From Eukaryota sp. GEM-RC1 (lineage: Eukaryota): a DNA stretch of 64,000 nt. Below, piece after piece: positions 1 to 62,860 of this stretch. The stretch lies in the NCBI GenBank assembly GCA_040285855.1, contig JAUFOQ010000016.1, forward strand, positions 744,001-808,000, in the 5' to 3' direction. Position numbers and translations under genes: made by a program. Position 1 is the stretch's first letter. The number at the start of each line of letters is the position of its first letter. The notes beneath the pieces are model-generated. The model was given only the letters and a program-made list of their open reading frames with translations, did no database searches and was not told the origin of the DNA.

Positions 1-1874
1 ACTTGACGATCTTTACAGATCATAGGAACTTGGCCTATCTAATATCAGCTCCAGAGAAGAATCGCATTGTAAAAACGATGGATTCCCATTTTATCTGAGT
101 TCGATTTTGAGATAGTGCACGTAGCTGGTAAAAACAATCAATGGGCTGACATGTTATCACGTGTTATTGACCGACGCCCAATTGAAACAATCAAATCTTT
201 GACGATATCAAACCCTTCCATCAAAAATGATATAACCCTTTGTTATGGAGACTTACGCTTTGATGATGCAGATTATTATGAGACGCTTCCACGTAGGACC
301 AACGTGCTAGCAATCAAGTGTCTTCGTGACCTCTCATTCGACAATAAACTTCCTTTATTTGATTCTTGGCTATCAACCATAAGGTTAGAACAAACTAAAG
401 CGATAGAACAAGGAGATGAACTGTTCAATGGCTCAACGTTTTGTACGAAGAGCAACATATACATCAACTCCAAGAACAAGATTTTGATTCCATCTAGCTT
501 GATAAAGAAGGTTCTTTACATGCTGCATGGCTTAGTCCAGTCAGGACATCCAAACAAGAAACAAAGTTTGGACATACTGTGCAATAGTGGGTACTTTTGG
601 CCAAGTATGAAAGCCGACATGAAGAAACATGTCGAGCAATGCCCTGCGTGTCAGAAAACGGCACCTGTCCCCAAAAGGACTATTGAATCGACGGGTTCTC
701 TATGGGCTGATAGACCTTTTGCAAGACTCAATGTCGATACAATTGGTCCACTTCCAAAAGATCAGAGTGGAAACCAATACCTCTTGGTGTTTGTAGATTC
801 GTTCACCAGATACACCATTCTGAGCCCCCTCGAAGAACTCAACAGTAACGCATATCGTCTTGTGTGGGATGTGATTGCCATCTTTGGTATACCGTTGTGT
901 ATACATAGTGACAATGGTACCGAGTTTGCCAATGCTATTTTTGAGGCAGTTTGTAACCTACTGGCGATTGAAGTAAGTCGTTCGATTCCTCATTTCTCCC
1001 AGAGTAATGGGCTGGTGGAACGACGTCACAGAGACGTTCTGCAGAGCCTACGTCGTCTCCTCGTGGACTTCAATGATTATGACAATTGGTTAACGTACAT
1101 TCCGACTGTACAGTTGCAAATCAACGCAACAAAGAGTTCAGTTACTGGACATACTCCCTACGAACTGATGTTCGGTAGCGATATAAGTCCTGGCGCAGAT
1201 CCTAGTAATTTACTAGATGCCGTTGAGAAATCAACAAAGAATGTTCCGTTTATTAACGACATTAAAATGAAACTAGATCGACTAACAAAAAGAGAGAAGA
1301 GGCAGAGGTTCGTCAATCAAATCTCAAGCCTAAGAAGAAACGTGAATCTAGTCAATCATTTAAGATTGGTGATCTTGTGTTAAAAGTCGCCAAAACTAGT
1401 AAACTCCATGGTAATTACACTGGACCATTTCTAGTAGTATCAGTTGATTCGAAATCTTCTGTATCTTTAAAGAATCTGATCACTGGTCATGTTGGCAAGA
1501 CCAGCATCCATCAATGTAAGATCTTTCAATCAGATCTACCAGCTGATCACGATCTCCACAGAGCAATTGCTTCAGGTGATTCTGAAGAACACATCGTTGT
1601 AAGGATCCTTGACAGGTTCAATACTCCTGATGGTGAACACTGTACGGTCCTCTGGTTTGGTGGTGACACTTCATCAGTTCCCACCAAGGACATCAAGAAC
1701 ACCAAGGCCTACAGTGATTTTTGTAAATTAGAAAATGTAGATTTATTTCATAGTAGTAACAAGAAGCCTAAGCTCAAACGCACCTCGAGTAGTAAGAGTA
1801 ATCCTAAGTCACCCTCTAACGTAAAGACACCTGTGGCTAAGAGAACAAGGAGCTCGAAAGAGGAGAAGATGTAG
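1..1874 (+). pseudogene. pol C-terminus (RNase H - integrase - GPY/F-like - chromodomain-like), frameshifted at ~75 and ~1290
   Basis: ORFs 115-1383 and 1377-1874 join; YTGPFLVV (GPY/F-like) and EEHIVVRILDRF...TVLWFGG (chromo-like). Confidence 0.8.
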
Positions 1875-5809: not shown

Positions 5810-6094
5810 TGAAGAAAATTATTGAGAATTTCATTTTCTTGCATTAGAAAAGGAAATAGATACACCATAACTTCAATTTTTACACAGCTGATCGTCAACA
5901 ACAGCTGTACTAAGTGTTCCACGGGAAACTTGTCTACAACTGAACATTGTTAAATTGTGTGCTCTGGCTGAAACATTACAAAAGGAAAGAAATTTATTAT
6001 TGTTCTGATAAATACTAATGTGTATTTCGTTAATTTTGATTCATTGCCCATAAATCCTGTCCTTCAGTAAAGAAAGCAAAAGTCAACTAAAATT

Positions 6095-6170
6095 AATTTT
6101 CAGGGTTATCAAGGTTCACCTCTTCAGTGTGCATTCTTAGACTTCTTTTCATTTATCAACCCAATAGTCC
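6095..6170 (-). repeat. Fragment homologous to the interior of the MITE at 44695-45247
   Basis: Reverse complement attgggttgata..aaagaagtctaagaatgc..gaagaggtgaacc.tgataaccctgaa matches ~45030-45097. Confidence 0.7.
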
Positions 6171-6469
6171 ATTCGATTCCAAACTGCACCAACGGTCCAA
6201 ATACTCATTTGGTCCGCCGAAAGAACTGATTGGGCCGTAAACGATGTGACTTTGGACCGGGGCTGTTTAAAAAATTTAAATAAATTATTGCACTCTGAAC
6301 AAAGTAAAACCAATAACTGCCGTATTTTACACTAAAATAAATAGTTGCCGTATTTTCAAAACAAAAATCAATAATTGCAATGATTTAAATACTTTTGTTT
6401 TGTTTCAAACGTCATCACATGAAAAGGATGCACTCAACTGTTTTTCCATCACTCACTATCACTGAAAGC

Positions 6470-8287: not shown

Positions 8288-8995
8288 ACATGAACATTAT
8301 GTAGCGTTTCAAAATTTTTGTAATTTGAATTTGTGATCGACGTTTCATTTTTTAGTCATCTAGGATACGCTGTTGACGTACTCTAATGGAAGCTTTCGAA
8401 CATTCAGCAGATAATTGTACGTTCTGCAAGTTGTTACAATAATTCATGACCCAATTGTACCAAACAATAGTATACTTGATCAGAAAGATCAGCTGTCGAG
8501 TGCTGTTCTCACGTATTTCAGTCTTTTTCATCAATAAAAGGGAATTTAAGACTGATCAAAAAAATACAAACAATCCAAATACAAATACACTTCTACAGAA
8601 AAAAATACAATACATTATACAGAAAACATACATTGTACAAATAAATACTGTATTTTGTATTTTACAACTATTGGACCGAATACAGCAATCCTTAAACACT
8701 TGTACCTTTACTAGAACGCCTTTTGATGCAAAATCGGTGTGTCTTCTACAAAATAATACCTGTCTGAGTGTTTGGATATGATGAGAAGTTGATTGATGAG
8801 CAAGTTTTCATTAATGGTATTTGAGTTGCTATTGTAAATAAAAGGCGTTTCTTTTAACAGCAGATTTGAGTGATTTTAAAAAATTGGTAAAATCGGAAAC
8901 GTCAAAAATTAAATTCAGATGGCTGTATCACTAAAAGTAACTATCACTTACGACTATCTACAGTCTCCCAACATCTTACATTCTTCTTTCAACAC

Positions 8996-27550: not shown

Positions 27551-28795
27551 CAGGGTCTCCGAAAAAATATTTAAATAAAATATGGCCAACTTTCTCTTGA
27601 AGAAATAAATATGAGTTATTGCAGATGAAGAAAATAAATAATTGCAATTATTTAAATTATTTATACCATTAAGACAAAAATACTACGACACTTGAAAAAT
27701 GTATTCTTACAATATAACGACTACTTCTGCTGACTTTTTGTTTCTTATAACTTTCCTCAAAGTTTCAGTGTTCCAGAAAGAACGGTTAAAGTGTAGGAAA
27801 AGTTGCCTTTCTAATGAGCCAGCATTCATACCAAAACGATGTTCACCAATAGTTCGCCGTACAGCTGAAAACAGTCTTTCACATTCATTGGAAATACCCA
27901 GGATGAATGAAAGGTCTGCATAACGTGACGCATTTTGCCTTCGAAGAGCAGAATTGTTCAAATCAGATTGGATATCTGCTGACTCCAGTGCGATATCAGA
28001 AGGCGCTTTTTCAAATTTAACAAGTGTATTCTTCTCAGCTGTAGTTAACTCCACTTCCTGTCCCTTCAAAACTTTGACGATAGCAGTTTCAAATGTCATC
28101 GAGTGCAGAATATTGGCATTTTCAGCAGTATAAGCAGTACATTGAGGAAAATGCCCATGAAACACTTCAAAAGCATCACTAATTTAGAGCAGATTCAAGT
28201 CAGCTCTTTGAAGATGCTTTGTAACATTTTCAAAACTTTCGTAGGTAGTGAGAAGTCTTCCAAGAACAGCTTGTTGCGTTAAGGAGATAACAAAATCAAG
28301 GAGAGAATCATCAAAAGAGAAAAATACATCGAGTTCTATGTATTGAAAAAATCGTTTCAGCAACTGGATGGTTGATGACCACCTCGTGGCATTTCGCTTC
28401 AAAGGTCTCAGTTGAGTTTTTTTGAAAGCGGTCAATGTGACCCAGATTCATCTCCTCTCTATACTGCGGATGTACTTTGTGGATATGGGGAAGCAGATTT
28501 GAATAGCCAGTTCCAGGTTTGATGAAAACGGGGTCACGTTCCGGACAGAATCTACATTTGTAGCCGACTTTACCATCAGGAACTTCGTCTGCCTGGGGAT
28601 TCATTTTCCGAAAGTAGAAGAGGGCGACCTCTTTGGGAGGCATACGAATCAGGGAAAGAACCAAAAAATATATAAATAATTTTTTATTTTCTGTTTTCAT
28701 AAAATAAATAATGGAGAAACCCAACTTGAAAAAATAAATTAAATATCATTATTTATTTTAAATATTTAAATACAAATATTTTTCCGTAGGCCCTG
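27551..28795 (-). mobile_element. Internally deleted hAT transposon with transposase remnant
   Basis: Imperfect TIR cagggtctccgaaaaaata / tatttttccgtaggccctg; TSD gtttaaag; BED finger YKCRFC...GYSNLLPHIHKVH, RNATRWSST, SNECERLFS. Confidence 0.93.
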
Positions 28796-38951: not shown

Positions 38952-39548
38952 TCAGAAACTGGACTGGACAAAACGGAAAAAGGAATCAACAATCGACCTC
39001 CGCTGAGCAGTTACAATTGTTTGGGTAAAGGTCGCATATTGGTCAGCAGACACATTTTCGACACTGACACGAACAAGAAAAGCAACTTGTTGTTGTTCAT
39101 TGTTGCGATATTGCTGGATTTTGCCTTGAATCCAACTAGCGGTCATTTTCTTGAACTGATTCCCATACTCCACGGATACCTGCGGTATGGAATCAGGGTG
39201 CAGTCTTTTCCCCTGTTGTTCGACCACTTCGAGGAAATGTTGTCTGAAGATGGGCTCCAAGTTCTCCTCCGTCATCACAGCAAGGTCACTGAAATAGACA
39301 GTCACTGGTGCAACGTCATCAAGTTTGTTGCTCTTTCTTCTGGACAATGCATAGAGAACATCGATTACAACCGCTTGACTTCCCTCGAAATATTGAAGAG
39401 AAGGGTCGGAGACTTCCAAAGGAGAGAGTGGGTCATCTTGAGAAAGCAGTTGTTCTTCTGAATATCGGAAGTCATCGATTGGGGGAAGAGCATCGGATTC
39501 ATCCTCGGAGAGGGGATCTGCGTAAGAAAGTAATGGTTGATTGAACAT
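38952..39548 (-). CDS. Hypothetical protein, possibly truncated or TE-derived
   Basis: 198-aa ATG ORF with acidic N-terminus, lying between TE remnants. Confidence 0.4.
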   Translation of the reverse strand: MFNQPLLSYADPLSEDESDALPPIDDFRYSEEQLLSQDDPLSPLEVSDPSLQYFEGSQAVVIDVLYALSRRKSNKLDDVAPVTVYFSDLAVMTEENLEPIFRQHFLEVVEQQGKRLHPDSIPQVSVEYGNQFKKMTASWIQGKIQQYRNNEQQQVAFLVRVSVENVSADQYATFTQTIVTAQRRSIVDSFFRFVQSSF

Positions 39549-39624
39549 GAAAAGGTGTTTGGGGAATAGGAAATAAAGTGTGTGGGAAATCCGCTTGAAC
39601 TGAAAAACACTGAAGTCTTTAAGA

Positions 39625-40339
39625 CAGTGTTATTCCATAACCGAATTTTCAAATGTCATGCGCCGATGGCCTATGGGTCATGGCTTTCGGACGCATGGCG
39701 CGAAAACAGGCATGGCGCATTAGCAATATTTTCAATATCCAACCAAGTTAGTAGATATTACGTAAATGAACACATATCGATATGTCCCACTATGTATTAT
39801 TGGTTTGTATTTGCAAACCTGTTCTCATACAATTCATTTCACAATCAATTTGAATCGAGTTCTGATTTTGATAGTTCTCTTACTCCTGTTACATGGTGGA
39901 AACCAAATGGTCCAACAGCCTGTGTAGTCAAGAAGCTTGCCATTAAGTTAATCTCACAAGTATGTTGAGCAGGAGCATGTGAAAGGGTTTGGAGTTCCTA
40001 TTATTTTATTCACTCAAACAGAACGAACCGGCTCACCACCGAAAGAGCTAAGAAGTTAGTGTATGTGCACTTTAATTCCAAATTCCAGAAACAAGCTGGT
40101 CTTATGAAACAAAGATGGACAGAACACAGCATGGAAAGCGATTCTTACTATTAGAGCTCTTTGTATAGGTTTCATAAATAACATTCTTTAAGTATACGTA
40201 TCATAGAACTACTGTACATGCTCATGTAGTACAGTGTCATTGTTGGAATAACAACACGTGTTAACACGCCATAACAACACGGCCATAATCAGAAAATGCC
40301 ATGCGCCAATGGACGCTTGGCACGCTTGGCACAACGCTG
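39625..40339 (+). mobile_element. Deleted hAT element carrying a dimerisation-domain remnant
   Basis: Ends cagtgttattcca / tggcacaacgctg; TSD ctttaaga/cttcaaga; PVTWWK...LAIKLISQ..AGACERVWSS...NRLTTERAKKLVYVHFN. Confidence 0.85.
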
Positions 40340-40458
40340 CTTCAAGAAGATTTTAATGGGTCCCTCTGTCCTGTCCTCAAATCTCGTCTAGTTCTCTTTT
40401 GTTTGTGTTATAATACTCCATATTGTCGTGATTCTTGCTGTTCTTGTTGTATTATATT

Positions 40459-41118
40459 CAGGGGTACTCAAAATTGAATTGCCAATTCAGTTGTTGCCAA
40501 TCAATTAATTGCAATATAAATTGGTCGATCGTTAGACCCCACCAATTAATTGGCAATTAATTGTCCAATTATCTAGTTATTGGTCTAATCAGTTTATTAT
40601 GAATAAGCAGCAGATCATTGATGGAAATCGGAAAAGTAGCTTTACAAAAATTTGTGAACAAAAAGTTTTTTATCGAAATGTCATACAGTGTGCTCTACAT
40701 TAGTCGATTCATAAATGAAATCTTTTTAGTAGTGTTACGAGAAACGCACCAAAATTAATCTGGAATCGCTGAAACGCTGAAACGTAGAAACGTTTCTCAT
40801 AACACTACTATTTTCCATGGCTAAATTTATGGTTACCCAGATAGACTTTGACTGACGGAACTCTCAATATGGAACTGTTAATGAAGCGTAGCAAACCTCC
40901 GTGGGAATGAAAAGTCTAAACGAAGATTTGTGAAGCAAATTGGTTTGAGGAAGTTGATTGTATTTGGAATTTAGTATGATAATATACGATTTTGTTTTCA
41001 TAAAACAATAACTGATTAATTGGTCAATTAATTGCCAATTAATTGCACTAATTGCAATATTAATTGTTTACATAAATTGAGAACCAATTAATTGCCAATT
41101 CAATTTTGAGTACCCCTG
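40459..41118. mobile_element. hAT MITE
   Basis: TIR CAGGGGTACTCAAAATTGAATTG; TSD attatatt; caattaattg subterminal repeats; nested 84-bp IR at 40727-40810. Confidence 0.93.
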
Positions 41119-41229
41119 ATTATATTTTTGTTAGATACAAAAACCTAAATTAATCTCAAGTCATCACAATTTCTCCGAGTTTTGACTGCTGATGGGGACA
41201 TAGAGTCTAATCATTGACCCAATCTAATT

Positions 41230-41590
41230 AAAGATCATTTCTTTATTGATTCTTTGCTACCTCATAGTTGGTTATGGCACACTATTGTAGACTATTTTGG
41301 ACAGTACATCACTGAACATAGTGTTTAATGCTCATACGTGTGAAGCAATGTCACTTGCAACAACAGAGGACAACTTGGCTGAAGATGAAAGAGATCATTG
41401 GCATCTTCTACAAACTATTTCAAGAAACGTTAGATTTGAAGAATTCTTCCAGACCACCAACCAAACAACATTTGTTTATTCCATTAAACGATGGTATCTT
41501 TAATAATGAAGCTACTCACTGGACTCTGTTGATTTGTGATATTAAGAGAAAATGATACTATTCCTTTGATCCATTGTTTACTCAAAATCA
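41230..41590 (+). pseudogene. Ulp1/C48 (SENP8/NEDP1-like) cysteine protease remnant
   Basis: SLLPHSWLWHTIVDYF; LFIPLNDGIFNNEATHWTLLICD...YYSFDPL; catalytic Cys region not seen. Confidence 0.7.
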
Positions 41591-41705
41591 ACATCAAAAG
41601 TTGGGAAAATTGCATTTATACCAGGGAAATGAAAAAAAAACTTATCATTTCTACCATACCCCTGCCAAATCTACCATACATGCTAATAAACAGAGAAGAT
41701 CGTAA

Positions 41706-42330
41706 ATGAATGGTTTTGAGAAAGAAGCTCACGACCTTGATTTTCTCGCAGATCAACAAATCATGATCTCTGTCATTATTGCAAAACTACAACCCAATGG
41801 TGAGTTACAATTTGACAACTCAATTGTCCTTTACACTGTCTACAACTATAAAATCAAATTCAGTGAATCAGAAACACCAGCTTTTAAATTAGCTCTTTTG
41901 GACTTCCCAAATAAAAACGAATTATTGGTTAAGTACGCCAATATTGTTAGTCAATTTAAACCACATGCTTTTATTGGACATAGCATTTTCAATTTTGACT
42001 TGCCCATAATTGACAATAACCTTCCACATTAAACAAATCCAAATCCAATTCAGTTACCTTTACATAGTAGATGGCTGGATATCATAAAAGATCACTATGG
42101 TTTTACAGTTTTGGATACCTTCTTATTTGCAAAGAAGTATATTGGTCTCAAGTATGGTTGTAGTCTAGCCAATTTATCTTGGAATTTACTTTCTGAACCT
42201 AAATTGAAATTGGATAAAGACTTGGATCACTTACTCCCAGTTGATTGTTTAAGAAATGATAAAAGAATGAAAACGCTAATCAACTACTGGTTCATGATTC
42301 AATTTTGGCGTTTAAATTGTGTATTTTATT
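41706..42330 (+). pseudogene. Family-B DNA polymerase 3'-5' exonuclease domain
   Basis: FPNKNELL...KPHAFIGHSIFNFDLPII (ExoII); DTFLFAKK...CSLANLSWNLL...K; NY[C]VHDSILAFKL (ExoIII after restoring 1 nt). Confidence 0.8.
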
Positions 42331-42349
42331 TCAAAAAGACAAAATTGTT

Positions 42350-44625
42350 TTTCAATCATGGGCTTCTATTAAAACTTCAGTTGTTAGTGTGGTAAAACAT
42401 CAAGAAGTTCAAGATCCTATGCTTTTGGGATCTCAGTTCTACAATGCGTCAAGACAACACACTACAATGACAATGTGTGTTAAAGAATATGTGTTGTCTC
42501 GCTATCGTCTTGGACAAGATTTGTCAAAGTTTGATTACAAGTTGTTTTATCATACAATGCTTTCAATTAGAAATCTTTCATCTGAAGTTCATAACTTTAA
42601 AATTCCAAATAATCGTCCTATATCAACAATTGATACAGATCTTCGTGATTTTGTTGCTGGAGAAGGAATTTCTACCGCCAATTCAAACTACCCTGGATTT
42701 AAGCACTGTGTTACTGGAAACATTTGGCACATGTCATTTACCAGAACTTGATTTTGATCATATCAGTAGAGCTTTTGAATACACTACTCAGTATGAAGTG
42801 TGGCCTGCGTTTGAATTAAATATTCGTCGCAATTATGAGTTGTACATTTACAGATTTATCAATACAGTAATGGGTAAGAAAGAGTTTGAAAAGGGAATGA
42901 AAGAGAGCCGTAATTTAGTTTTAGGTCCAGAACTTACAGGCCTGACAGGACATGAAGCTCAAAAGTTCACTAGTTACTTCAGATTTCGTTTAAAGATGTT
43001 GAAAGACCAGACTTTGTATCGACCCAGACATGAAGCCTTACAGCATATTAATTCTTTTAATTCTCTGCCACTCACCCTGAAAATGTTAAGTTTATTGATG
43101 AAGTTTCCAAAGTTTTTGATGATGATTTCAGTATGTTAATATTTGAACAGATTAATTCCCTAATGACTGATAAAATTCCAGAATTACTTCAAAGATTAAA
43201 CATCATATTTCCTGCTTCAATCACTACAAACGAGAATGAAACTGTAGACGTCCACAATTGACTTTACACAGTTCAGGACCATTCTCTTCATTTTCTAGGA
43301 AACTCTCTTCAAATCTCAGATTACTTGGAATCCAAGGGTGATAAGTTGTATAAAGTAATTCCTCTAAGTTTGAAGACTATTCCCTGTTTATTCCCAATAG
43401 ATACTAGAACTCTTTGGGGACTGGCTAAGCACTGTATTGGATATGAGAATAATGATAAGAACATTGGTCCTTTACATTCAAAAGTGACTAATTACATGTC
43501 TGCTGATCAGATTAATGACTTGACCCATCCTCAACAACAAGATTACTGGAAAAGATGGTTTAACTGTGATGACAGAAGTTTTCACAAAGCCAATTTTGAA
43601 TTCAACAACTATGCTGTAACTGATGGAATTTCGATTTGTTTTCAATTTGTGAGAAAAGATTTGAAAGGAATGAAATGTAAACCTGATTCAAGTAAAGCTT
43701 CAGTAAAAGTACAATATTTCAATGAATGTGATAGGTCTGATTGTATCTCTAAACAAATGGTTTATGTGGACATTGGAAAGAGAGATATGCTACAACTTGC
43801 ATCAAAATCAAATAGGGAAACTCAAAAGCCTCTAAAGAAATACAACTTCTTACGATTGACATATGCTGAGTGGTCTAGAGTTTCAAGAAAGCATAAAAGA
43901 ATCCACCAGTACCTTGTCAGAAAGAGATCTGGTACTAATCCCTCAGGTCAGACAAAGACTATTGAGGAATGGAACACTTGGTTAGGTGAAGATCAGGATT
44001 CTAAGACAGTCATCTACAATAAATTTAGAGAATTTATGCTGAATAAATGTATTCACTACAATGCAACTAAAGACTTCTATGCTTTGCATATATGGAGGAT
44101 TCACAAAATCCAAATCATGTCCATAAGCAAAAGACAGAGTCTAAATTGGTTAACAGCATTGTGAGAACTTTTGGTAAGTGTGACAAAATTGTACTATGTA
44201 TTGGTGATTTAGGTCAGAAGCCAATGACCAACTTAAAACACAGTCCACCATCGAGAACTAAAACTTGGACTTCATTCTTTCAGAGAAACGGTTTTCTAAT
44301 AGTAATGAATGATGAGAGAAACACTTCGTCCAAGTGTCCAGAATGTCATGAATATGTTTTTGAAACTTCTAATGAGGTTGTCAACCCAAAGCCCAAATCA
44401 AGAGAGAAGAGAGAATGGATTCATCCACATGGCTTACTAGAGTGTAAGAGCAAACATTGTCTGGGAGAAGTCAAGAAGCTATTGAAAGGATAAAAGATAG
44501 GGCACACATTGCCCATTCAAATGTATTGGAATCGTAACAAGATGGCTTGTTTGAACATGATGAACATGTTCGAACACTGGATGAGTGGAGGTGATGAGAA
44601 AGTTGAGTATTTGTGTAGAAATTAG
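42350..44625 (+). pseudogene. Fanzor (eukaryotic TnpB-derived RNA-guided RuvC nuclease), full length but disrupted
   Basis: IKTSVVSVVK; ELNIRRNY...RFIN; KVIPL...IP..FPIDT; VTDGISIC; YVDIGKRD (RuvC-I); IGDLGQK; DERNTSSKCPEC (RuvC-II + Zn); HGLLECKSKHC; WNRNKMACLNM (RuvC-III); EYLCRN*. Confidence 0.88.
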
Positions 44626-44694
44626 CTTTATTTTTGTTAAAACCCGGCCATATTTGGTTAAGTCCATACAATTGTACAGATAGGTACTTTGTAG

Positions 44695-45247
44695 CATAGT
44701 TGCAAAATATAAAATACAGTATTTGCATGTATTCTGTATTTTTTTCCGGAAAAGTGTACAATGTATTTGTATTTTTATTTGTTTTTCTTGTATTTTCTGC
44801 ACATCACTGAGTTTCATCCTGTTTTGATGATGTACGTGTAGTCTTTGGGGACTATGAGAACAAGTGTAAATTTTGTTACCTACAAGCGGTACAATAAGAC
44901 GATTTACAACTAATGTACGAGACAAAAAGTGTCCAAAGTCACATTGTACAACTGTATAACTGCACATCAGTACTTTCCGTGGACGTAATGAACTTTTGAA
45001 CCTTTTAGCATTTTAGAATCGAAAGAACAATTGGGTTGATATATATAAAGAAGTCTAAGAATGCGTAACGAAGAGGTGAACCCTGATAACCCTGAAGATC
45101 AATCACGTAGGACTCAATACAGTTAGTTTAATACTTGCCATTACATTAAAAAGATACACTTAAGACAGTATTCTGTATTGTATTTGTATTCTGTATTGTA
45201 TTATTCTGTATTGTATTATTTTTTTGTCCGTGTATTTTGCAACTATG
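44695..45247. mobile_element. hAT MITE inserted 69 bp downstream of the Fanzor stop codon
   Basis: TIR CATAGTTGCAAAATA; TSD ctttgtag (44687-44694, 45248-45255). Confidence 0.93.
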
Positions 45248-45601: not shown

Positions 45602-46177
45602 ATGCCAATCACCGTAATGATATATCACCTTCTCTTTGGATTACTCCTTTTCGGATGTCTAGCATGTGAACATTCTTGTTACGATTCAACTTGCACAATA
45701 TCTGGAGGCTCAAAGGAACGTTGTACTTGTGGTTCAAGAAACTATGGAGAAGTTACAAAGTATTATGCTTATTGTTTTGCAAAAGACGCAACTGCATGTG
45801 AACAGTCTGTTGGAAGAACAAGCTGTTCGATTGAAGGCCAACATGCAGCATGTGGTCTTGACTCACGTTCATACTACACCACAACTTGGTTCGTTGCTTT
45901 TTGTCAGGCCCGAAACGCTCCCCGATGTTCTATTTCTGCATATGATTCAAAATGTGAAATTGTGGGAGAAAAGGCGAGTTGTGGTACTACTCTTACTCAT
46001 GGGGGAAGAAATACGTATCTTGTGCCTCGCTGCAATGCTGCAAATGCTGTACAGTGTTCTATCAAGTGTGGTGGAGATTATTGTGAAAAACTATGTCCTC
46101 AACATGGGAAAAGAGCAGACTGTCATTGTAAGGCATCTACTTCTGGGGTTTTATTAGCACGTTGCAATTGTCTCTAA
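45602..46177 (+). CDS. Secreted cysteine-rich repeat protein
   Basis: Hydrophobic N-terminus; three ~40-aa C-x6-C-x6/8-CG...C-A..A..C modules plus a Cys-rich tail. Confidence 0.75.
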   Translation: MPITVMIYHLLFGLLLFGCLACEHSCYDSTCTISGGSKERCTCGSRNYGEVTKYYAYCFAKDATACEQSVGRTSCSIEGQHAACGLDSRSYYTTTWFVAFCQARNAPRCSISAYDSKCEIVGEKASCGTTLTHGGRNTYLVPRCNAANAVQCSIKCGGDYCEKLCPQHGKRADCHCKASTSGVLLARCNCL

Positions 46178-46282: not shown

Positions 46283-47428
46283 CATTCATGCGCCATTGTG
46301 TGCCATACACGTATGGACTCCCATACGTCCATACGCTTATGGCAATTTCTGTTTTTGCCATACGCATTTTGACGAAATGTATCTGTATTTGAACTTTTCG
46401 CAGAGAGACTCTATGACATGTTTGTAATTATGTAGATAAATATACTTTAGTGAAAACCAAACCTTCACATCATCCATCTCATTGGAAAAATTTTGACCAT
46501 CAGGATACCATCTCTGCTTCCATTGTTGGATGTCTTTGATCTGAGTTCCAATTAATGTGTATAGATACCAGTTTTTTGTGCGTTCATTATAAATTTGTTC
46601 TTGTTCGTATCTCACTTTTTTTAAAATAGTTCTACAAAGTGAAAAAACTACAAAAGATCTTTTTCATCGTTTATTGTGAATGAATGAGTACGTACCAGTG
46701 TTCGAAATTTCCCACGTGTTTTTCAAAAGACACCGTGTCGGTGTTAACACGCGTGTCCACACGGTGTCTTTGATGTGTCTTTTGGGTGTTTTTGCGTGTT
46801 TTTTTGGAAAATAATTTCTCATCAACTATATAGAGTTTGACCATCAACACATACTTTTGGGCCAATTCTTGCCTTTATCTGACATCCCATCACTGAATCT
46901 TGGATACTGTGGTTCTGTTGAGTTGAATTGTGTTCTAGGTCTGTTTGACAACGCATCATGTCAGTATTTTGGCCACTTTCTGTTGGCATTGCAGTCTATT
47001 GTGGTATAACATATAGAAAAACATTCAAGTCGAACAGTGTTGAGGGAAATAAAAGGGTACTTTCGAAGTTTTCTAGGTTTTTTGCAGAAAAACACGTACA
47101 CACGCGGTGTCTTTTTGCGTGTTTTTCTGCGTGTTTTTCAAAAGACACCGTGTCCGTGTCCAAACGTGTCTGCATGTCCAAACGTGTCCACGCGTGTCTT
47201 CGAACACTGGTACGTACTCAACCTGTTTCAAACAATTCTACAGACCGTACTTCTGATACTAATTTGATGACAAATTGAAGTGTATGAGTTGGTATTTAGA
47301 CATAATGAAGTTAAACGTTGGAAAGATTCTGCTAGACATGGTTTGATGCCCATTGTCAGCCATTCTGCCATACGTCCATACGCCCATAAGCATATGACAA
47401 ATTTATTTTTGGTTATGGCGCAAGACTG
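46283..47428. mobile_element. Probable MITE with ccatacg subterminal repeats, hosting a nested MITE
   Basis: Ends cattcatgcgccat / atggcgcaagactg; ccatacgtccatacg at both ends; no TSD found. Confidence 0.55.
46696..47209. mobile_element. Nested hAT MITE
   Basis: TIR cagtgttcgaa; TSD gtacgtac; aaagacaccgtgtc repeats. Confidence 0.9.
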
Positions 47429-57343: not shown

Positions 57344-57366
57344 AAGAAAAAAAGTTCACTCTTTTG

Positions 57367-60300
57367 ATGGTAATTCCTGGACTTGATCAACTAGGTTCAT
57401 CAGATCAAGAGATATCTCATCTACGGAAAACTAATGAAGCTCTCCGAAAGGAAATCGATGAGCTTGTGGAACATTCCAGTCTTCGTGACCAGCAACAAGA
57501 GTCTCTTATATCATCTCTTCAATCTGAACTTATCAAGTTTAAATCTGATATCGCCAATTCTCATTCTCAAACAGAGGCATTTAATGAAGCTGTGGCAGAG
57601 TTACATTCTGAAGTCAGTAATTATAAGAAACAGTTATCTGATATGAAGGAAAGTTATTCTCTTGAACAGGAAAAATCTAATCAATTATTGGCTGAATTGA
57701 ATCAATTAAAAGAACAATTGGAGTTTGTTAATCACAATTATAGTTCTGAATCTACGCAACTGTCAACAGAGTTGTCCAATTTGAAGGAAAGTTACTCTCT
57801 TGAACAAGAAAAATCTAATCAATTATTGACTGAATCTAATCAATTAAAAGAACAATTGGAGTTGGTTAATCAAAATTATAGTTCTGAATCTACGCAACTG
57901 TCAACAGAGTTGTCCAATTTGAAGGAAAGTTATTCTCTTGAACAGGAAAAATCTAATCAATTAAAAGAACAATTGGAGTTGGTTAATCAAAATTATAGTT
58001 CTGAATCCACGCAACTGTCAACAGAGTTGTCCAATTTGAAGGAAAGTTATTCTCTTGAACAGGAAAAATCTAATCAATTATTGACTGAATTGAATCAATT
58101 AAGAGAACAATTGGAGTTGGTTAATCACAATTATAGTTCTGAATCTACGCAACTTTCAACAGAGTTGTCCAATTTGAAGGAAAGTTATTCTCTTGAACAA
58201 GAAAAATCTAATCAGTTAAAAGAACAATTGGAGTTGGTTAATCAAAATTATAGTTCTGAATCCACGCAACTGTCAACAGAGTTGTCCAATTTGAAGGAAA
58301 GTTATTCTCTTGAACAGGAAAAATCTAATCAATTAAAAGAACAATTGGAGTTGGTTAATCAAAATTATAGTTCTGAATCCACGCAACTGTCAACAGAGTT
58401 GTCCAATTTGAAGGAAAGTTATTCTCTTGAACATGAAAAATCTAATCAATTAAAAGAACAATTGGAGTTGGTTAATCAAAATTGTAGTTCTGAATCCACG
58501 CAACTGTCAACAGAGTTGTCCAATTTGAAGGAAAGTTATTCTCTTGAACAGGAAAAATCTAATCAATTATTGACTGAAATGAATCAATTAAAAGAACAAT
58601 TGGAGTTGGTTAATCAAAATTATAGTTCTGAATCCACGCAACTGTCAACAGAGTTGTCCAATTTGAAGGAAAGTTATTCTCTTGAACAGGAAAAATCTAA
58701 TCAATTAAAAGAACAATTGGAGTTGGTTAATCAAAATTATAGTTCTGAATCCACGCAACTGTCAACAGAGTTGTCCAATTTGAAGGAAAGTTATTCTCTT
58801 GAACAGGAAAAATCTAATCAATTAAAAGAACAATTGGAGTTGGTTAATCAAAATTATAGTTCTGAATCCACGCAACTGTCAACAGAGTTGTCCAATTTGA
58901 AGGAAAGTTATTCTCTTGAACAGGAAAAATCTAATCAATTATTGACTGAATTGAATCAATTAAAAGAACAATTGGAGTTTGTTAATCAAAATTATAGTTC
59001 TGAATCCACGCAACTGTCAACAGAGTTGTCCAATTTGAAGGAAAGTTATTCTCTTGAACAGGAAAAATCTAATCAATTATTGACTGAATTGAATCAATTA
59101 AGAGAACAATTGGAGTTGGTTAATCACAATTATAGTTCTGAATCTACGCAACTGTCAACAGAGTTGTCCAATTTGAAGGAAAGTTATTCTCTTGAACAGG
59201 AAAAATCTAATCAATTAAAAGAACAATTGGAGTTGGTTAATCAAAATTATAGTTCTGAATCCACACAACTGTCAACAGAGTTGTCCAATTTGAAGGAAAG
59301 TTATTCTCTTGAACAGGAAAAATCCAATCAATTAAAAGAACAATTGGAATTGGTTAATCAAAATTATAGTTCTGAATCCACGCAACTGTCAACAGAGTTG
59401 TCCAATTTGAAGGAAAGTTATTCTCTTGAACAGGAAAAATCTAATCAATTTTTGACTGAATTGAATCAATTAAAAGAACAATTGGAGTTGGTTAATCACA
59501 ATTATAGTTCTGAATCTACCCAACTGTCATCGGAATTATCCGATTTGAAGGAAAGTTATTCTCTTGAACAGGAAAAATCTAATCAATTATTGACTGAGTT
59601 GAATCAATTAAGAGAACAATTGGAGTTGGTTAATCACAATTATAGTTCTGAATCTACGCAACTGTCAACAGAGTTGTCCAATTTGAAGGAAAGTTATTCT
59701 CTTGAACAGGAAAAACCTAATCAATTAAAAAGAACAATTGGAGTTGGTTAATCAAAATTATAGTTCTGCATCCACGCAACTGTCAACAGAGTTGTCCAAT
59801 TTGAAGGAAAGTTATTGTCTCGAACAAGAAAAATCTAATCAATTAAAAGAACAATTGGAGTTGATTAATCAAAATTATAGTTCTGAATCCACGCAACTGT
59901 CAACAGAGTTGTCCAATTTGAAGGAAAGTTATTCTCTTGAACAGGAAAAATCTAATCAATTAAAAGAACAATTGGAGTTGGTTAATCAAAATTATAGTTC
60001 TGAATCCACGCAACTGTCAACAGAGTTGTCCAATTTGAAGGAAAGTTATTCTCTTGAACAGGAAAAATCTAATCAATTATTGACTGAATTGAATCAATTA
60101 AAAGAACAATTGGAGTTTGTTAATCAAAATTATAGTTCTGAATCCACGCAACTGTCAACAGAGTTGTCCAATTTGAAGGAAAGTTATTCTCTTGAACAGG
60201 AAAAATCTAATCAATTATTGACTGAAATGAATCAATTAAAAGAACAATTGGAGTTGGTTAATCACAATTATAGTTCTGAATCTACCCAACTGTCATCGGA

Positions 60301-62860
60301 ATTATCCGATTTGAAGGAAAGTTATTCTCTTGAACAGGAAAAATCTAATCAATTATTGACTGAGTTGAATCAATTAAGAGAACAATTGGAGTTGGTTAAT
60401 CACAATTATAGTTCTGAATCTACGCAACTGTCAACAGAGTTGTCCAATTTGAAGGAAAGTTATTCTCTTGAACAGGAAAAATCTAATCAATTAAAAGAAC
60501 AATTGGAGTTGGTTAATCAAAATTATAGTTCTGCATCCACGCAACTGTCAACAGAGTTGTCCAATTTGAAGGAAAGTTATTGTCTCGAACAAGAAAAATC
60601 TAATCAATTAAAAGAACAATTGGAGTTGATTAATCAAAATTATAGTTCTGAATCCACGCAACTGTCAACAGAGTTGTCCAATTTGAAGGAAAGTTATTCT
60701 CTTGAACAGGAAAAATCTAATCAATTAAAAGAACAATTGGAGTTTGTTAATCAAAATTATAGTTCTGAATCCACGCAACTGTCAACAGAGTTGTCCAATT
60801 TGAAGGAAAGTTATTCTCTTGAACAGGAAAAATCTAATCAATTATTGACTGAAATGAATCAATTAAAAGAACAATTGGAGTTGGTTAATCAAAATTATAG
60901 TTCTGAATCCACGCAACTGTCAACAGAGTTGTCCAATTTGAAGGAAAGTTATTCTCTTGAACAGGAAAAATCTAATCAATTATTGACTGAAATGAATCAA
61001 TTAAAAGAACAATTGGAGTTGGTTAATCAAAATTATAGTTCTGAATCCACGCAACTGTCAACAGAGTTGTCCAATTTGAAGAAAAGTTATTCTCTTGAAC
61101 AGGAAAAATCTAATCAATTTTTGACTGAATTGAATCAATTAAAAGAACAATTGGAGTTGGTTAATCAAAATTGTAGTTCTGAATCCACGCAACTGTCAAC
61201 AGAGTTGTCCAATTTGAAGGAAAGTTATTCTCTTGAACAGGAAAAATCTAATCAATTATTGACTGAAATGAATCAATTAAAAGAACAATTGGAGTTGGTT
61301 AATCAAAATTATAGTTCTGAATCCACGCAACTGTCAACAGAGTTGTCCAATTTGAAGGAAAGTTATTCTCTTGAACAGGAAAAATCTAATCAATTAAAAG
61401 AACAATTGGAGTTGATTAATCAAAATTATAGTTCTGAATCCACGCAACTGTCAACAGAGTTGTCCAATTTGAAGGAAAGTTATTCTCTTGAACAGGAAAA
61501 ATCTAATCAATTAAAAGAACAATTGGAGTTGGTTAATCAAAATTATAGTTCTGAATCCACGCAACTGTCAACAGAGTTGTCCAATTTGAAGGAAAGTTAT
61601 TCTCTTGAACAGGAAAAATCTAATCAATTATTGACTGAATTGAATCAATTAAAAGAACAATTGGAGTTTGTTAATCAAAATTATAGTTCTGAATCCACGC
61701 AACTGTCAACAGAGTTGTCCAATTTGAAGGAAAGTTATTCTCTTGAACAGGAAAAATCTAATCAATTATTGACTGAATTGAATCAATTAAAAGAACAATT
61801 GGAGTTTGTTAATCAAAATTATAGTTCTGAATCCACGCAACTGTCAACAGAGTTGTCCAATTTGAAGGAAAGTTATTCTCTTGAACAGGAAAAATCTAAT
61901 CAATTAAAAGAACAATTGGAGTTGGTTAATCAAAATTATAGTTCTGAATCCACGCAACTGTCAACAGAGTTGTCCAATTTGAAGGAAAGTTATTGTCTCG
62001 AACAAGAAAAATCTAATCAATTAAAAGAACAATTGGAGTTGATTAATCAAAATTATAGTTCTGAATCCACGCAACTGTCAACAGAGTTGTCCAATTTGAA
62101 GGAAAGTTATTCTCTTGAACAGGAAAAATCTAATCAATTAAAAGAAAAATTGGAGTTGGTTAATCAAAATTATAGTTCTGAATCCACGCAACTGTCAACA
62201 GAGTTGTCCAATTTGAAGGAAAGTTATTCTCTTGAACAGGAAAAATCTAATCAATTAAAAGAACAATTGGAGTTGGTTAATCAAAATTATAGTTCTGAAT
62301 CCACGCAACTGTCAACAGAGTTGTCCAATTTGAAGGAAAGTTATTCTCTTGAACAGGAAAAATCTAATCAATTAAAAGAACAATTGGAGTTGGTTAGTCA
62401 AAATTATAGTTCTGAATCCACGCAACTGTCAACAGAGTTGTCCAATTTGAAGGAAAGTTATTCTCTTGAACAGGAAAAATCTAATCAATTATTGACTGAA
62501 TTGAATCAATTAAAAGAACAATTGGAGTTGGTTAATCAAAATTATAGTTCTGAATCCACGCAACTGTCATCAGAGTTGTCCAATTTGAAGGAAAGGTACT
62601 CTCTTGAACAGGAAAAATCTAATCAATTATTGACTGATGACGTTTTGCCACTATTTGGAGAAAAGCTCACTTTAATGACTGAGCTCAATAACCTCCAATC
62701 AATTAACGAATCAGTGTTATCAAAATATTCTTCTCTTCTTGTCAAGTATAAGGAACTTGGTGTATCTTCAAAAGCCGAAAAGGATCGTAATGGACTTCTC
62801 AGAAGAAGACTTGCCAAGAATAGCAGGGAACCTCCAATCAAAATTAAAAAGGTGTCATAG
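57367..62860 (+). CDS. Giant tandem-repeat coiled-coil protein (~1,830 aa); frameshift at ~59727-59731
   Basis: Unique N- and C-termini flanking ~40 units of LKESYSLEQEKSNQ[LLTELNQ]LKEQLELVNQNYSSESTQLSTELSN. Confidence 0.85.
57643..62636 (+). repeat. Coding minisatellite with 117-bp and 138-bp units
   Basis: ttgaaggaaagtt recurs at 57781, 57919 (+138), 58036 (+117) and onward. Confidence 0.97.

Follow-up and report, generated by a model that had tools for sequence, protein, structure and literature searches.

A predicted proofreading-type exonuclease in one chain with Fanzor1 in a multicopy protist mobile element

Organization of the locus

The window, a 64,000-nucleotide stretch of Eukaryota sp. 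GEM-RC1 DNA, contains one degraded copy of a mobile element that is multicopy in protists and whose intact relatives have an exonuclease and Fanzor1 in one chain. The features assigned at the locus are listed in Table 1.

Table 1. Features assigned at the locus, with positions in the window.
Feature	Position	Strand	Observations
hAT-type remnant	39625..40339	+	Imperfect TIRs beginning CAG; 8-bp flanks CTTTAAGA / CTTCAAGA, 7/8 identical
5′-leader of the polyprotein ORF, decayed	40340..40458	+	tblastn matches of P0030, P0032 and P0034 to 40373-40453, E 1e-4 to 4e-6
MITE with hAT-like ends, nested in the leader and dividing it	40459..41118		Perfect inverted match of the outermost 18 bp; flanked on each side by the 8-bp duplication ATTATATT
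Degenerate StopGo/2A motif (predicted)	41191..41220	+	Reads DGDIESNH*P, versus DGDIESNPGP in relatives
Ulp1/C48 protease, N-terminal half	41221..41606	+	HWTLL His motif at 41517; two frameshifts; catalytic-Cys half deleted
Unassigned DNA (~80 bp) at the deletion point	41607..41687		No match to P0031 past aa 141 or to P0011 ahead of aa 126
PolB-type DEDDy 3′-5′ exonuclease (predicted)	41688..42319	+	Pfam PF03104; 89% identity to P0011
Exonuclease-Fanzor junction	42320..42385	+	Contiguous DNA, without Met and without 2A
Fanzor1 (assigned on homology and fold)	42368..44625	+	WED/REC; RuvC-I DIG at 43769; RuvC-II E in NDERNTSSKCPEC at 44308; zinc finger; RuvC-III WNRN at 44527
Guide (omega) RNA, candidate, predicted position	44626..44694	+	Expected 3′ of Fanzor
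Nested MITE with hAT-like ends	44695..45247		TIR CATAGTTGCAAAATA; 8-bp duplication CTTTGTAG; begins 70 bp past the Fanzor stop

The element reaches upstream to at least 40340. The hAT-type remnant immediately before this position has a weak match to the hAT dimerisation domain (Pfam, E=0.08) and was probably inserted within the 5′-leader of the element. Each of the three hAT-like insertions has its own TIR pair and 8-bp duplication and none encloses the Fanzor gene; with every such insertion self-contained, a hAT element is probably not the carrier of this gene. No repeats enclosing the Fanzor gene were found in the window, and neither element ends nor a transposase were found in the window copy. 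Pieces related to the MITE downstream of the Fanzor gene are present at 6092-6257 and 8595-8671.

One deletion, near 41607-41687, took the C-terminal half of the protease, the second 2A, the linker and ExoI from the window copy. What remains of the exonuclease has ExoII at 41976, in-frame stops at 41703 and 42030, and an ExoIII, at ~42285-42300, that is split by a one-base frameshift. The Fanzor1 sequence has frameshifts near 42716, 43062 and 44113 and stops at 43259 and 44491. For the guide RNA, looked for in this single decayed copy of the element, Rfam gave 0 matches, and the folding of the region was not clearly better than that of shuffled sequences (z 0.14, -0.33 and -1.77).

Several other sequences in the window were recorded. 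A 225-codon ORF (38952-39629, minus strand), which may be a gene of the host or of the element, is directed away from the element and has no informative Pfam match, and a cysteine-rich ORF of 191 aa (45602-46177, plus strand) has a signal-peptide-like start and no Pfam match. Another inverted-repeat element, with perfect 22-bp arms and no evident duplication, is located at 46685-47220. By eye, ORFs at 73-1874 (plus strand) resemble integrase, which we take to be of the Ty3/Gypsy type, and 27707-28745 (minus strand) resembles a hAT-like transposase remnant with BED-finger-like and dimerisation-like motifs. Two successive ORFs at 57346-62860 (minus strand), of 801 and 1043 aa, contain near-identical coiled-coil repeats of 32-39 aa.

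The exonuclease domain

The domain N-terminal to Fanzor1 is predicted from its motifs and profile matches to be a PolB-type DEDDy 3′-5′ exonuclease. The sequence-only reading of this DNA had noted an ExoII-like motif and DTFLFAKK and assigned them to a PolB exonuclease. Both are present, as GHSIFNFD at 41976-41999 and DTFLFAKK at 42114-42137, and 41706-42029 matches Pfam DNA_pol_B_exo1 above the gathering score (E=1.1e-6). The ATG at 41706 lies inside the domain and is not its true start; in relatives, the domain begins earlier with ExoI (DIET), the part deleted from the window copy. Intact relatives have all three motifs, ExoI (DxE), ExoII (NxxxFD) and ExoIII (YxxxD), and the profile match of the exonuclease to Pol delta has an E of 4.6e-11. 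Stand-alone PF03104 proteins of 207-284 aa likewise resemble the fused exonuclease.

When the exonuclease was modelled by itself (pLDDT 73), the top 17 VIA-align rows were all family-B polymerases (Z 12.8-16.2), with ExoI, DnaQ, TREX1 and RNases ranking below them (RNases at Z <= 11.4). In the AlphaFold model of full-length P0191 (pLDDT 78, pTM 0.67), the front domain matches family-B polymerases and is attached at the WED (TAM-side) terminus of Fanzor1 by a linker with pLDDT < 50. As the sequence-only reading had it, no polymerase palm follows; fingers and thumb are also absent, polymerase matches stop at ExoIII and Fanzor1 begins at once. An origin as a polymerase remnant, from a Polinton or a viral polB, was rejected given the absence of a palm and best matches to the exonuclease domains of RNA-primed family-B polymerases. 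In all of the family exonucleases, ExoI is also followed directly by an inserted basic, helical segment of ~40 aa (alignment A3, columns ~680-740), a candidate contact for nucleic acid or Fanzor.

It is very unlikely that the domain serves to shorten the 3′-end of a guide RNA read through into flanking DNA. DEDD folds do include RNases (3′hExo, Z 11.4; RNase T, Z 10.9) and the domain adjoins the WED domain, but in both sequence and fold it is nearest to polymerase proofreading DNases, and other Fanzors mature their guides without such a domain.

Exonuclease and Fanzor1 are fused in the relatives

In the window, LINYW (42276-42290) is continued in the next frame by HDSILAFKL...IKTSVV (42293-42385) with no stop and no in-frame Met, and the frame into Fanzor is open, as first read. 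The one-base repair of ExoIII proposed at this point was correct in that a single base has been lost, but the restored motif is NYCLHD in relatives rather than NYCVHD. The pieces on either side of the frameshift are both 89% identical to P0011, to aa 126-331 and aa 333-472, respectively. They are consecutive parts of this protein and the junction is therefore one coding stretch from which, here, one base has been lost.

A search for longer proteins with the Fanzor half identified 2 of 910 candidates: P0004, from Eukaryota sp. GEM-RC1, which is 84% identical and has PF03104, and P0005, from TZLM1-RC. The P0004 cluster has 18 members, of which 15 are listed, and the P0005 cluster has 11, all listed. 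When 1.84 billion representatives were searched with a profile, 1066 matches were obtained at E<=1e-3, in which the best rows from outside the family are of the Fanzor1 type; ten of the top matches, when looked up, were all from GEM-RC1, TZLM1-RC and TZLM3-RCL. From the strain names, we take these to be the free-living metamonads of PMC11316075, the main text of which does not contain the word "Fanzor".

ExoIII is present in 24 of the 52 named proteins, and 23 of these run in frame into Fanzor1 (22 on a pattern match to the first helix of Fanzor, and P0199 on inspection). The lone exception, P0039, ends 19 aa after ExoIII. Another of the 52, the gene model P0010, has its initial Met within the first helix of Fanzor, past the first strand of the WED domain, and so looks truncated. 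Four proteins of 1096-2027 aa (P0025, P0041, P0190 and P0191) are full-length single models with ExoI to ExoIII and the whole of Fanzor. In P0191, the Pol delta match covers aa 206-372 and the N-terminus of SpuFz1 aligns from ~aa 380, with the alignment continuing to the end. Nine family representatives have pairwise identities of 23-55%, and in their alignment the ExoI D/E, ExoII D, ExoIII Y..D and the junction are all kept, the junction being conserved across subfamilies as KLFxLF...T. The exonuclease was found in none of the 126 other Fanzor1 proteins among the 149 matches listed (best E 0.55); of these 126, 98 are at least 550 aa long. In a midpoint-rooted FastTree phylogeny of the 120 of 170 proteins that cover the RuvC half, all 19 rows of the fused Fanzors, 16 of them named and 3 unnamed, fall on a single branch with an SH-like support of 100 and a length of 0.93.

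The fusion is almost certainly real. The sequence-only reading had allowed for paralogues with their own start and no exonuclease upstream, and for a TE or recombination boundary at ~42330. The relatives instead carry the exonuclease in frame, in single ORFs from three genomes, the junction is retained across subfamilies at 23-55% identity, and the profile search does assign the region to the PolB exonuclease. It could still be argued that there is no real fusion, and that a Fanzor element was inserted into a pseudogene of a polymerase or gene prediction joined neighbours, since the junction is disrupted in the window copy and the relatives come from an automated gene-model pipeline (PMC11316075). 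With the relatives known as protein gene models only, predicted introns could hide breaks elsewhere in them. In the window, however, the junction is contiguous DNA with a gapless, residue-for-residue match to P0011, and in three genomes it has been retained between lineages with ~25-30% identity. This alternative is thus most improbable and is largely refuted.

Scans of DNA with family-specific patterns gave 39 matches in viral contigs and 223 and 52 in metagenomes, none of which was confirmed, and leads from the ESM Atlas with the whole protein were all under 0.9. P0190 (RCL1_001071) also has a DEAH-box helicase (aa 144-556) ahead of the exonuclease-Fanzor, either a captured module or a merged neighbour.

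Upstream 2A motifs and a Ulp1 protease

Short motifs upstream of the fusion are predicted to be StopGo/2A peptides and, together with an upstream Ulp1/C48 protease, suggest that the element encodes a polyprotein. Neither feature was part of the sequence-only reading, nor was the loss of ExoI from the window copy or the D-E-N RuvC triad described below. In each of the 15 proteins with 2A motifs, these precede the protease or the exonuclease, and none separates the exonuclease from Fanzor. The core is the canonical D(V/I)ExNPGP in 11 proteins and DVHxNPGP in 4; as individual cases, P0052, P0080, P0195 and P0196 have the 2A-like DVHKNPGP or DIHPNPGP, with His for the canonical Glu. The first motif reads RDLTMDG-DIESNPGP and fits the DLTxDG class of StopGo upstream motifs (PMC12846837).

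Eight GEM-RC1 proteins (P0030-P0037) have the order leader-2A-Ulp1, with an intact 2A core in seven. P0028 continues from the end of Ulp1 through a 2A into exonuclease-Fanzor, and P0011, P0052 and P0196 have 2A-exonuclease-Fanzor. In P0080 and P0199, the order is 2A-Ulp1-exonuclease-Fanzor and the second 2A, between protease and exonuclease, is absent; P0041 and P0191 have no 2A in their annotated parts. The protease was identified with Pfam PF02902 (P0031, E=8.6e-11), and P0031 and P0034, both at ~1e-10, have the His-Asp-Cys motifs HWTLL, YSLD and QGDCG. The window remnant, which keeps the His motif and is without the Cys half, matches Peptidase_C48 on read-through (E=0.001) and relatives by tblastn at 74-88%. 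The N-termini of P0032, P0034, P0041, P0189, P0080 and P0196 contain tandem repeats of ~28-35 aa that are possibly subterminal DNA repeats of the element.

The Fanzor1 part and its active site

By whole-length homology and predicted fold, the Fanzor part is assigned to Fanzor1. It matches SpuFz1 from the first strand to the C-terminus, and the P0191 model compared with SpuFz1 has a TM(target) of 0.82 (E 2.8e-28). The RuvC-II Glu is located six residues ahead of the zinc finger (DERNTSSKCPEC in the window, with the same pattern in relatives), and this relocation is a Fanzor1 trait (PMC10711439). RuvC-I is DPG in the TZLM3-RCL lineages and DIG or DLG in the window and in the GEM-RC1 and TZLM1-RC lineage, with the Asp present in both.

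RuvC-III has RN, with Asn for Asp, in 20 of 21 scorable family proteins but in only 6 of 104 others among the matches listed; 44 family proteins and 22 others were not scorable. An RD motif is expected for Fanzor1 (PMC3627910). GtFz1, with a D-E-N triad, is nevertheless active with Asn at the third RuvC position, and SpuFz1 D606N cuts better than the wild type (PMC11423790), from which it follows that the family nuclease is likely active, by analogy, and that RN at this position does not exclude membership of Fanzor1. The clade-wide RN also prompted a dead-RuvC reading, in which an RNA-guided binder carries the exonuclease; this was rejected on the activity of GtFz1 and SpuFz1 D606N described in the same paper. 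Among the matches listed, six Fanzor1 proteins that lack the exonuclease (P0059, P0075, P0126, P0140, P0152 and P0168) have a RuvC-III Asn, and as they are on several branches, the D-E-N triad likely arose repeatedly.

Possible functions of the fusion

To our knowledge, Fanzors have been described as single-nuclease proteins, and we know of no account of the fate of their cut ends in hosts. A literature search, mostly at abstract level and with subscription papers, Repbase entries and preprint supplements outside its scope, turned up no natural exonuclease-Fanzor fusion, as the sequence-only reading had supposed, and no 2A Fanzor polyprotein. The word "exonuclease" is absent from the main text of PMC3627910, PMC10711439, PMC10530073, PMC10432273 and PMC13565253, and from the supplements of PMC10432273 (9 files, save one picture PDF) and PMC10530073 (2 files). 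The fusion is thus apparently an undescribed Fanzor1 variant, represented here by a dead copy.

In intact relatives, Fanzor1 may cut under RNA guidance and the exonuclease may then trim the cut 3′-end to aid homing, a proposal that we consider as apt to prove wrong as right; trimming of cut ends had been put forward in the sequence-only reading. Ribosomal skipping at the putative 2A sites would free the leader and protease, leaving exonuclease and Fanzor as one chain. Fanzor would then cut the non-target strand of an element-free target ~14-17 bases past the insertion point, as this strand is cut after base 16-17 by SpuFz1 and after base 14-17 in the case of GtFz1 (PMC10432273). Such a cut would leave a displaced, single-stranded 3′-tail out of register with the element-bearing template; with the cut beyond the insertion point, the TAM-side end would have a short 3′-stretch whose removal is required for the element to be copied in. 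The tethered single-strand 3′-5′ exonuclease would shorten this tail in the direction of the insertion point, and the trimmed end could then prime copying of the element into the break, in homing or restorative homing. In phage intron homing, the exonuclease of T4 gp43 removes such 3′-stretches. Gene conversion at empty sites is promoted by TnpB, an effect also proposed for OMEGA systems in general (PMC13565253). In the weakest step of the proposal, the Ulp1 protease would strip SUMO- or NEDD8-type marks from host silencing or repair factors.

Several observations stand against trimming in aid of homing. Restorative homing needs an excising element, and no guide RNA, ends or transposase have been found; ordinary Fanzors persist without an exonuclease; and fusion of TREX1, TREX2 or T5 exonuclease to MmeFz2 in every case lowered editing (PMC12923547). 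The exonuclease is predicted to be attached on the WED side, in a model with a pTM of 0.67 and a linker at pLDDT < 50, and P0080 and P0199 are without a 2A between protease and exonuclease.

The same anatomy, in an element in which no transposase was found, would also suit an exonuclease that makes the cut irreversible by degrading the ends and blocking religation, with the targets (empty alleles, rival elements or viruses) destroyed or deleted. Engineered TREX2-nuclease fusions follow this logic. We regard this explanation as unlikely, though credible, given that exonuclease fusions impaired MmeFz2 editing and that the element gains no copy simply from the destruction of an empty chromosomal site. 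Guides, from viruses or otherwise, were not recovered.

It seems improbable that the exonuclease serves transposition, for example by trimming element or donor ends for a transposase acting in trans, or that it is carried as accessory cargo with some other benefit. P and piggyBac elements are known to carry DEDDh nucleases as cargo (PMC3627910), LTR elements carry DnaQ-like domains (PMC6338049), and the polyprotein does gather modules, with Ulp1 in some lineages and the helicase in P0190. However, these other modules are variable and mostly separated by 2A motifs; the exonuclease, in contrast, is in every case joined straight to Fanzor, and the junction is conserved.

Returning to cutting followed by trimming, a still broader proposal can be put forward tentatively, as one that we doubt more than we believe. 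The family may be a lineage-wide eukaryotic OMEGA class in which a virus-style 2A polyprotein yields an RNA-guided D-E-N Fanzor1 joined to a proofreading exonuclease, a cut-and-trim enzyme that would prepare the break for copying of the element, with a SUMO-type protease co-delivered against host silencing. If true, such an enzyme would amount to a programmable editor of natural origin that processes DNA ends. In three genomes, and despite deep divergence, a second nuclease has stayed fused with its catalytic residues intact, while the neighbouring modules are mostly 2A-separated; this makes it possible to test concretely how breaks made by Fanzor are repaired. KAL0226007.1, KAL0210696.1 and KAL0221781.1 are examples of intact natural exonuclease-Fanzor proteins, where engineered fusions failed. 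Fanzor would also be added to the proteins predicted to be expressed through StopGo polyproteins.

Comparison with known systems

The family resembles SpuFz1 from Spizellomyces punctatus (PDB 8GKH/9CEU; PMC10432273) over its whole length in the WED-REC-RuvC-zinc-finger layout (phmmer E 4.3e-31), and shares with SpuFz1 and PpFz1 (9CF0) the relocated RuvC-II Glu and occurrence in a multicopy element without its own transposase. Unlike both, it carries a PolB exonuclease of ~250 aa at the N-terminus of the same chain, is preceded by 2A and Ulp1 modules, and has Asn at RuvC-III and, in the window's lineage, DIG or DLG for DPG; no TIRs or guide RNA were identified for the window element. The non-canonical D-E-N triad is shared with GtFz1 from Guillardia theta (PDB 9CER), which is more distant in sequence (E 0.024) and for which no exonuclease is reported in the part of PMC11423790 cited here.

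The exonuclease has the DEDDy motifs and fold (Z up to 16.2) of the PF03104 proofreading domain of family-B polymerases, namely Pol delta, Pol epsilon, E. coli Pol II and T4/RB69 gp43, but here there is no palm, fingers or thumb and ExoI is followed by the ~40-aa basic insertion. In placing 2A motifs ahead of a nuclease, sometimes with a ubiquitin-like protease, the element is like the 2A-bearing non-LTR ORF2 proteins with deubiquitinases described in bioRxiv 10.64898/2026.06.17.732966; in contrast, the present element has Fanzor1 as its nuclease and a protease of the Ulp1/C48 type, and no reverse transcriptase or APE endonuclease was seen in it. An exonuclease tethered to an RNA-guided nuclease is also the design of the engineered fusions TREX2-Cas9 and TREX1/TREX2/T5-MmeFz2. 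Those are artificial, with reduced activity on MmeFz2 (PMC12923547), whereas the pairing in this family is natural and has been kept by evolution.
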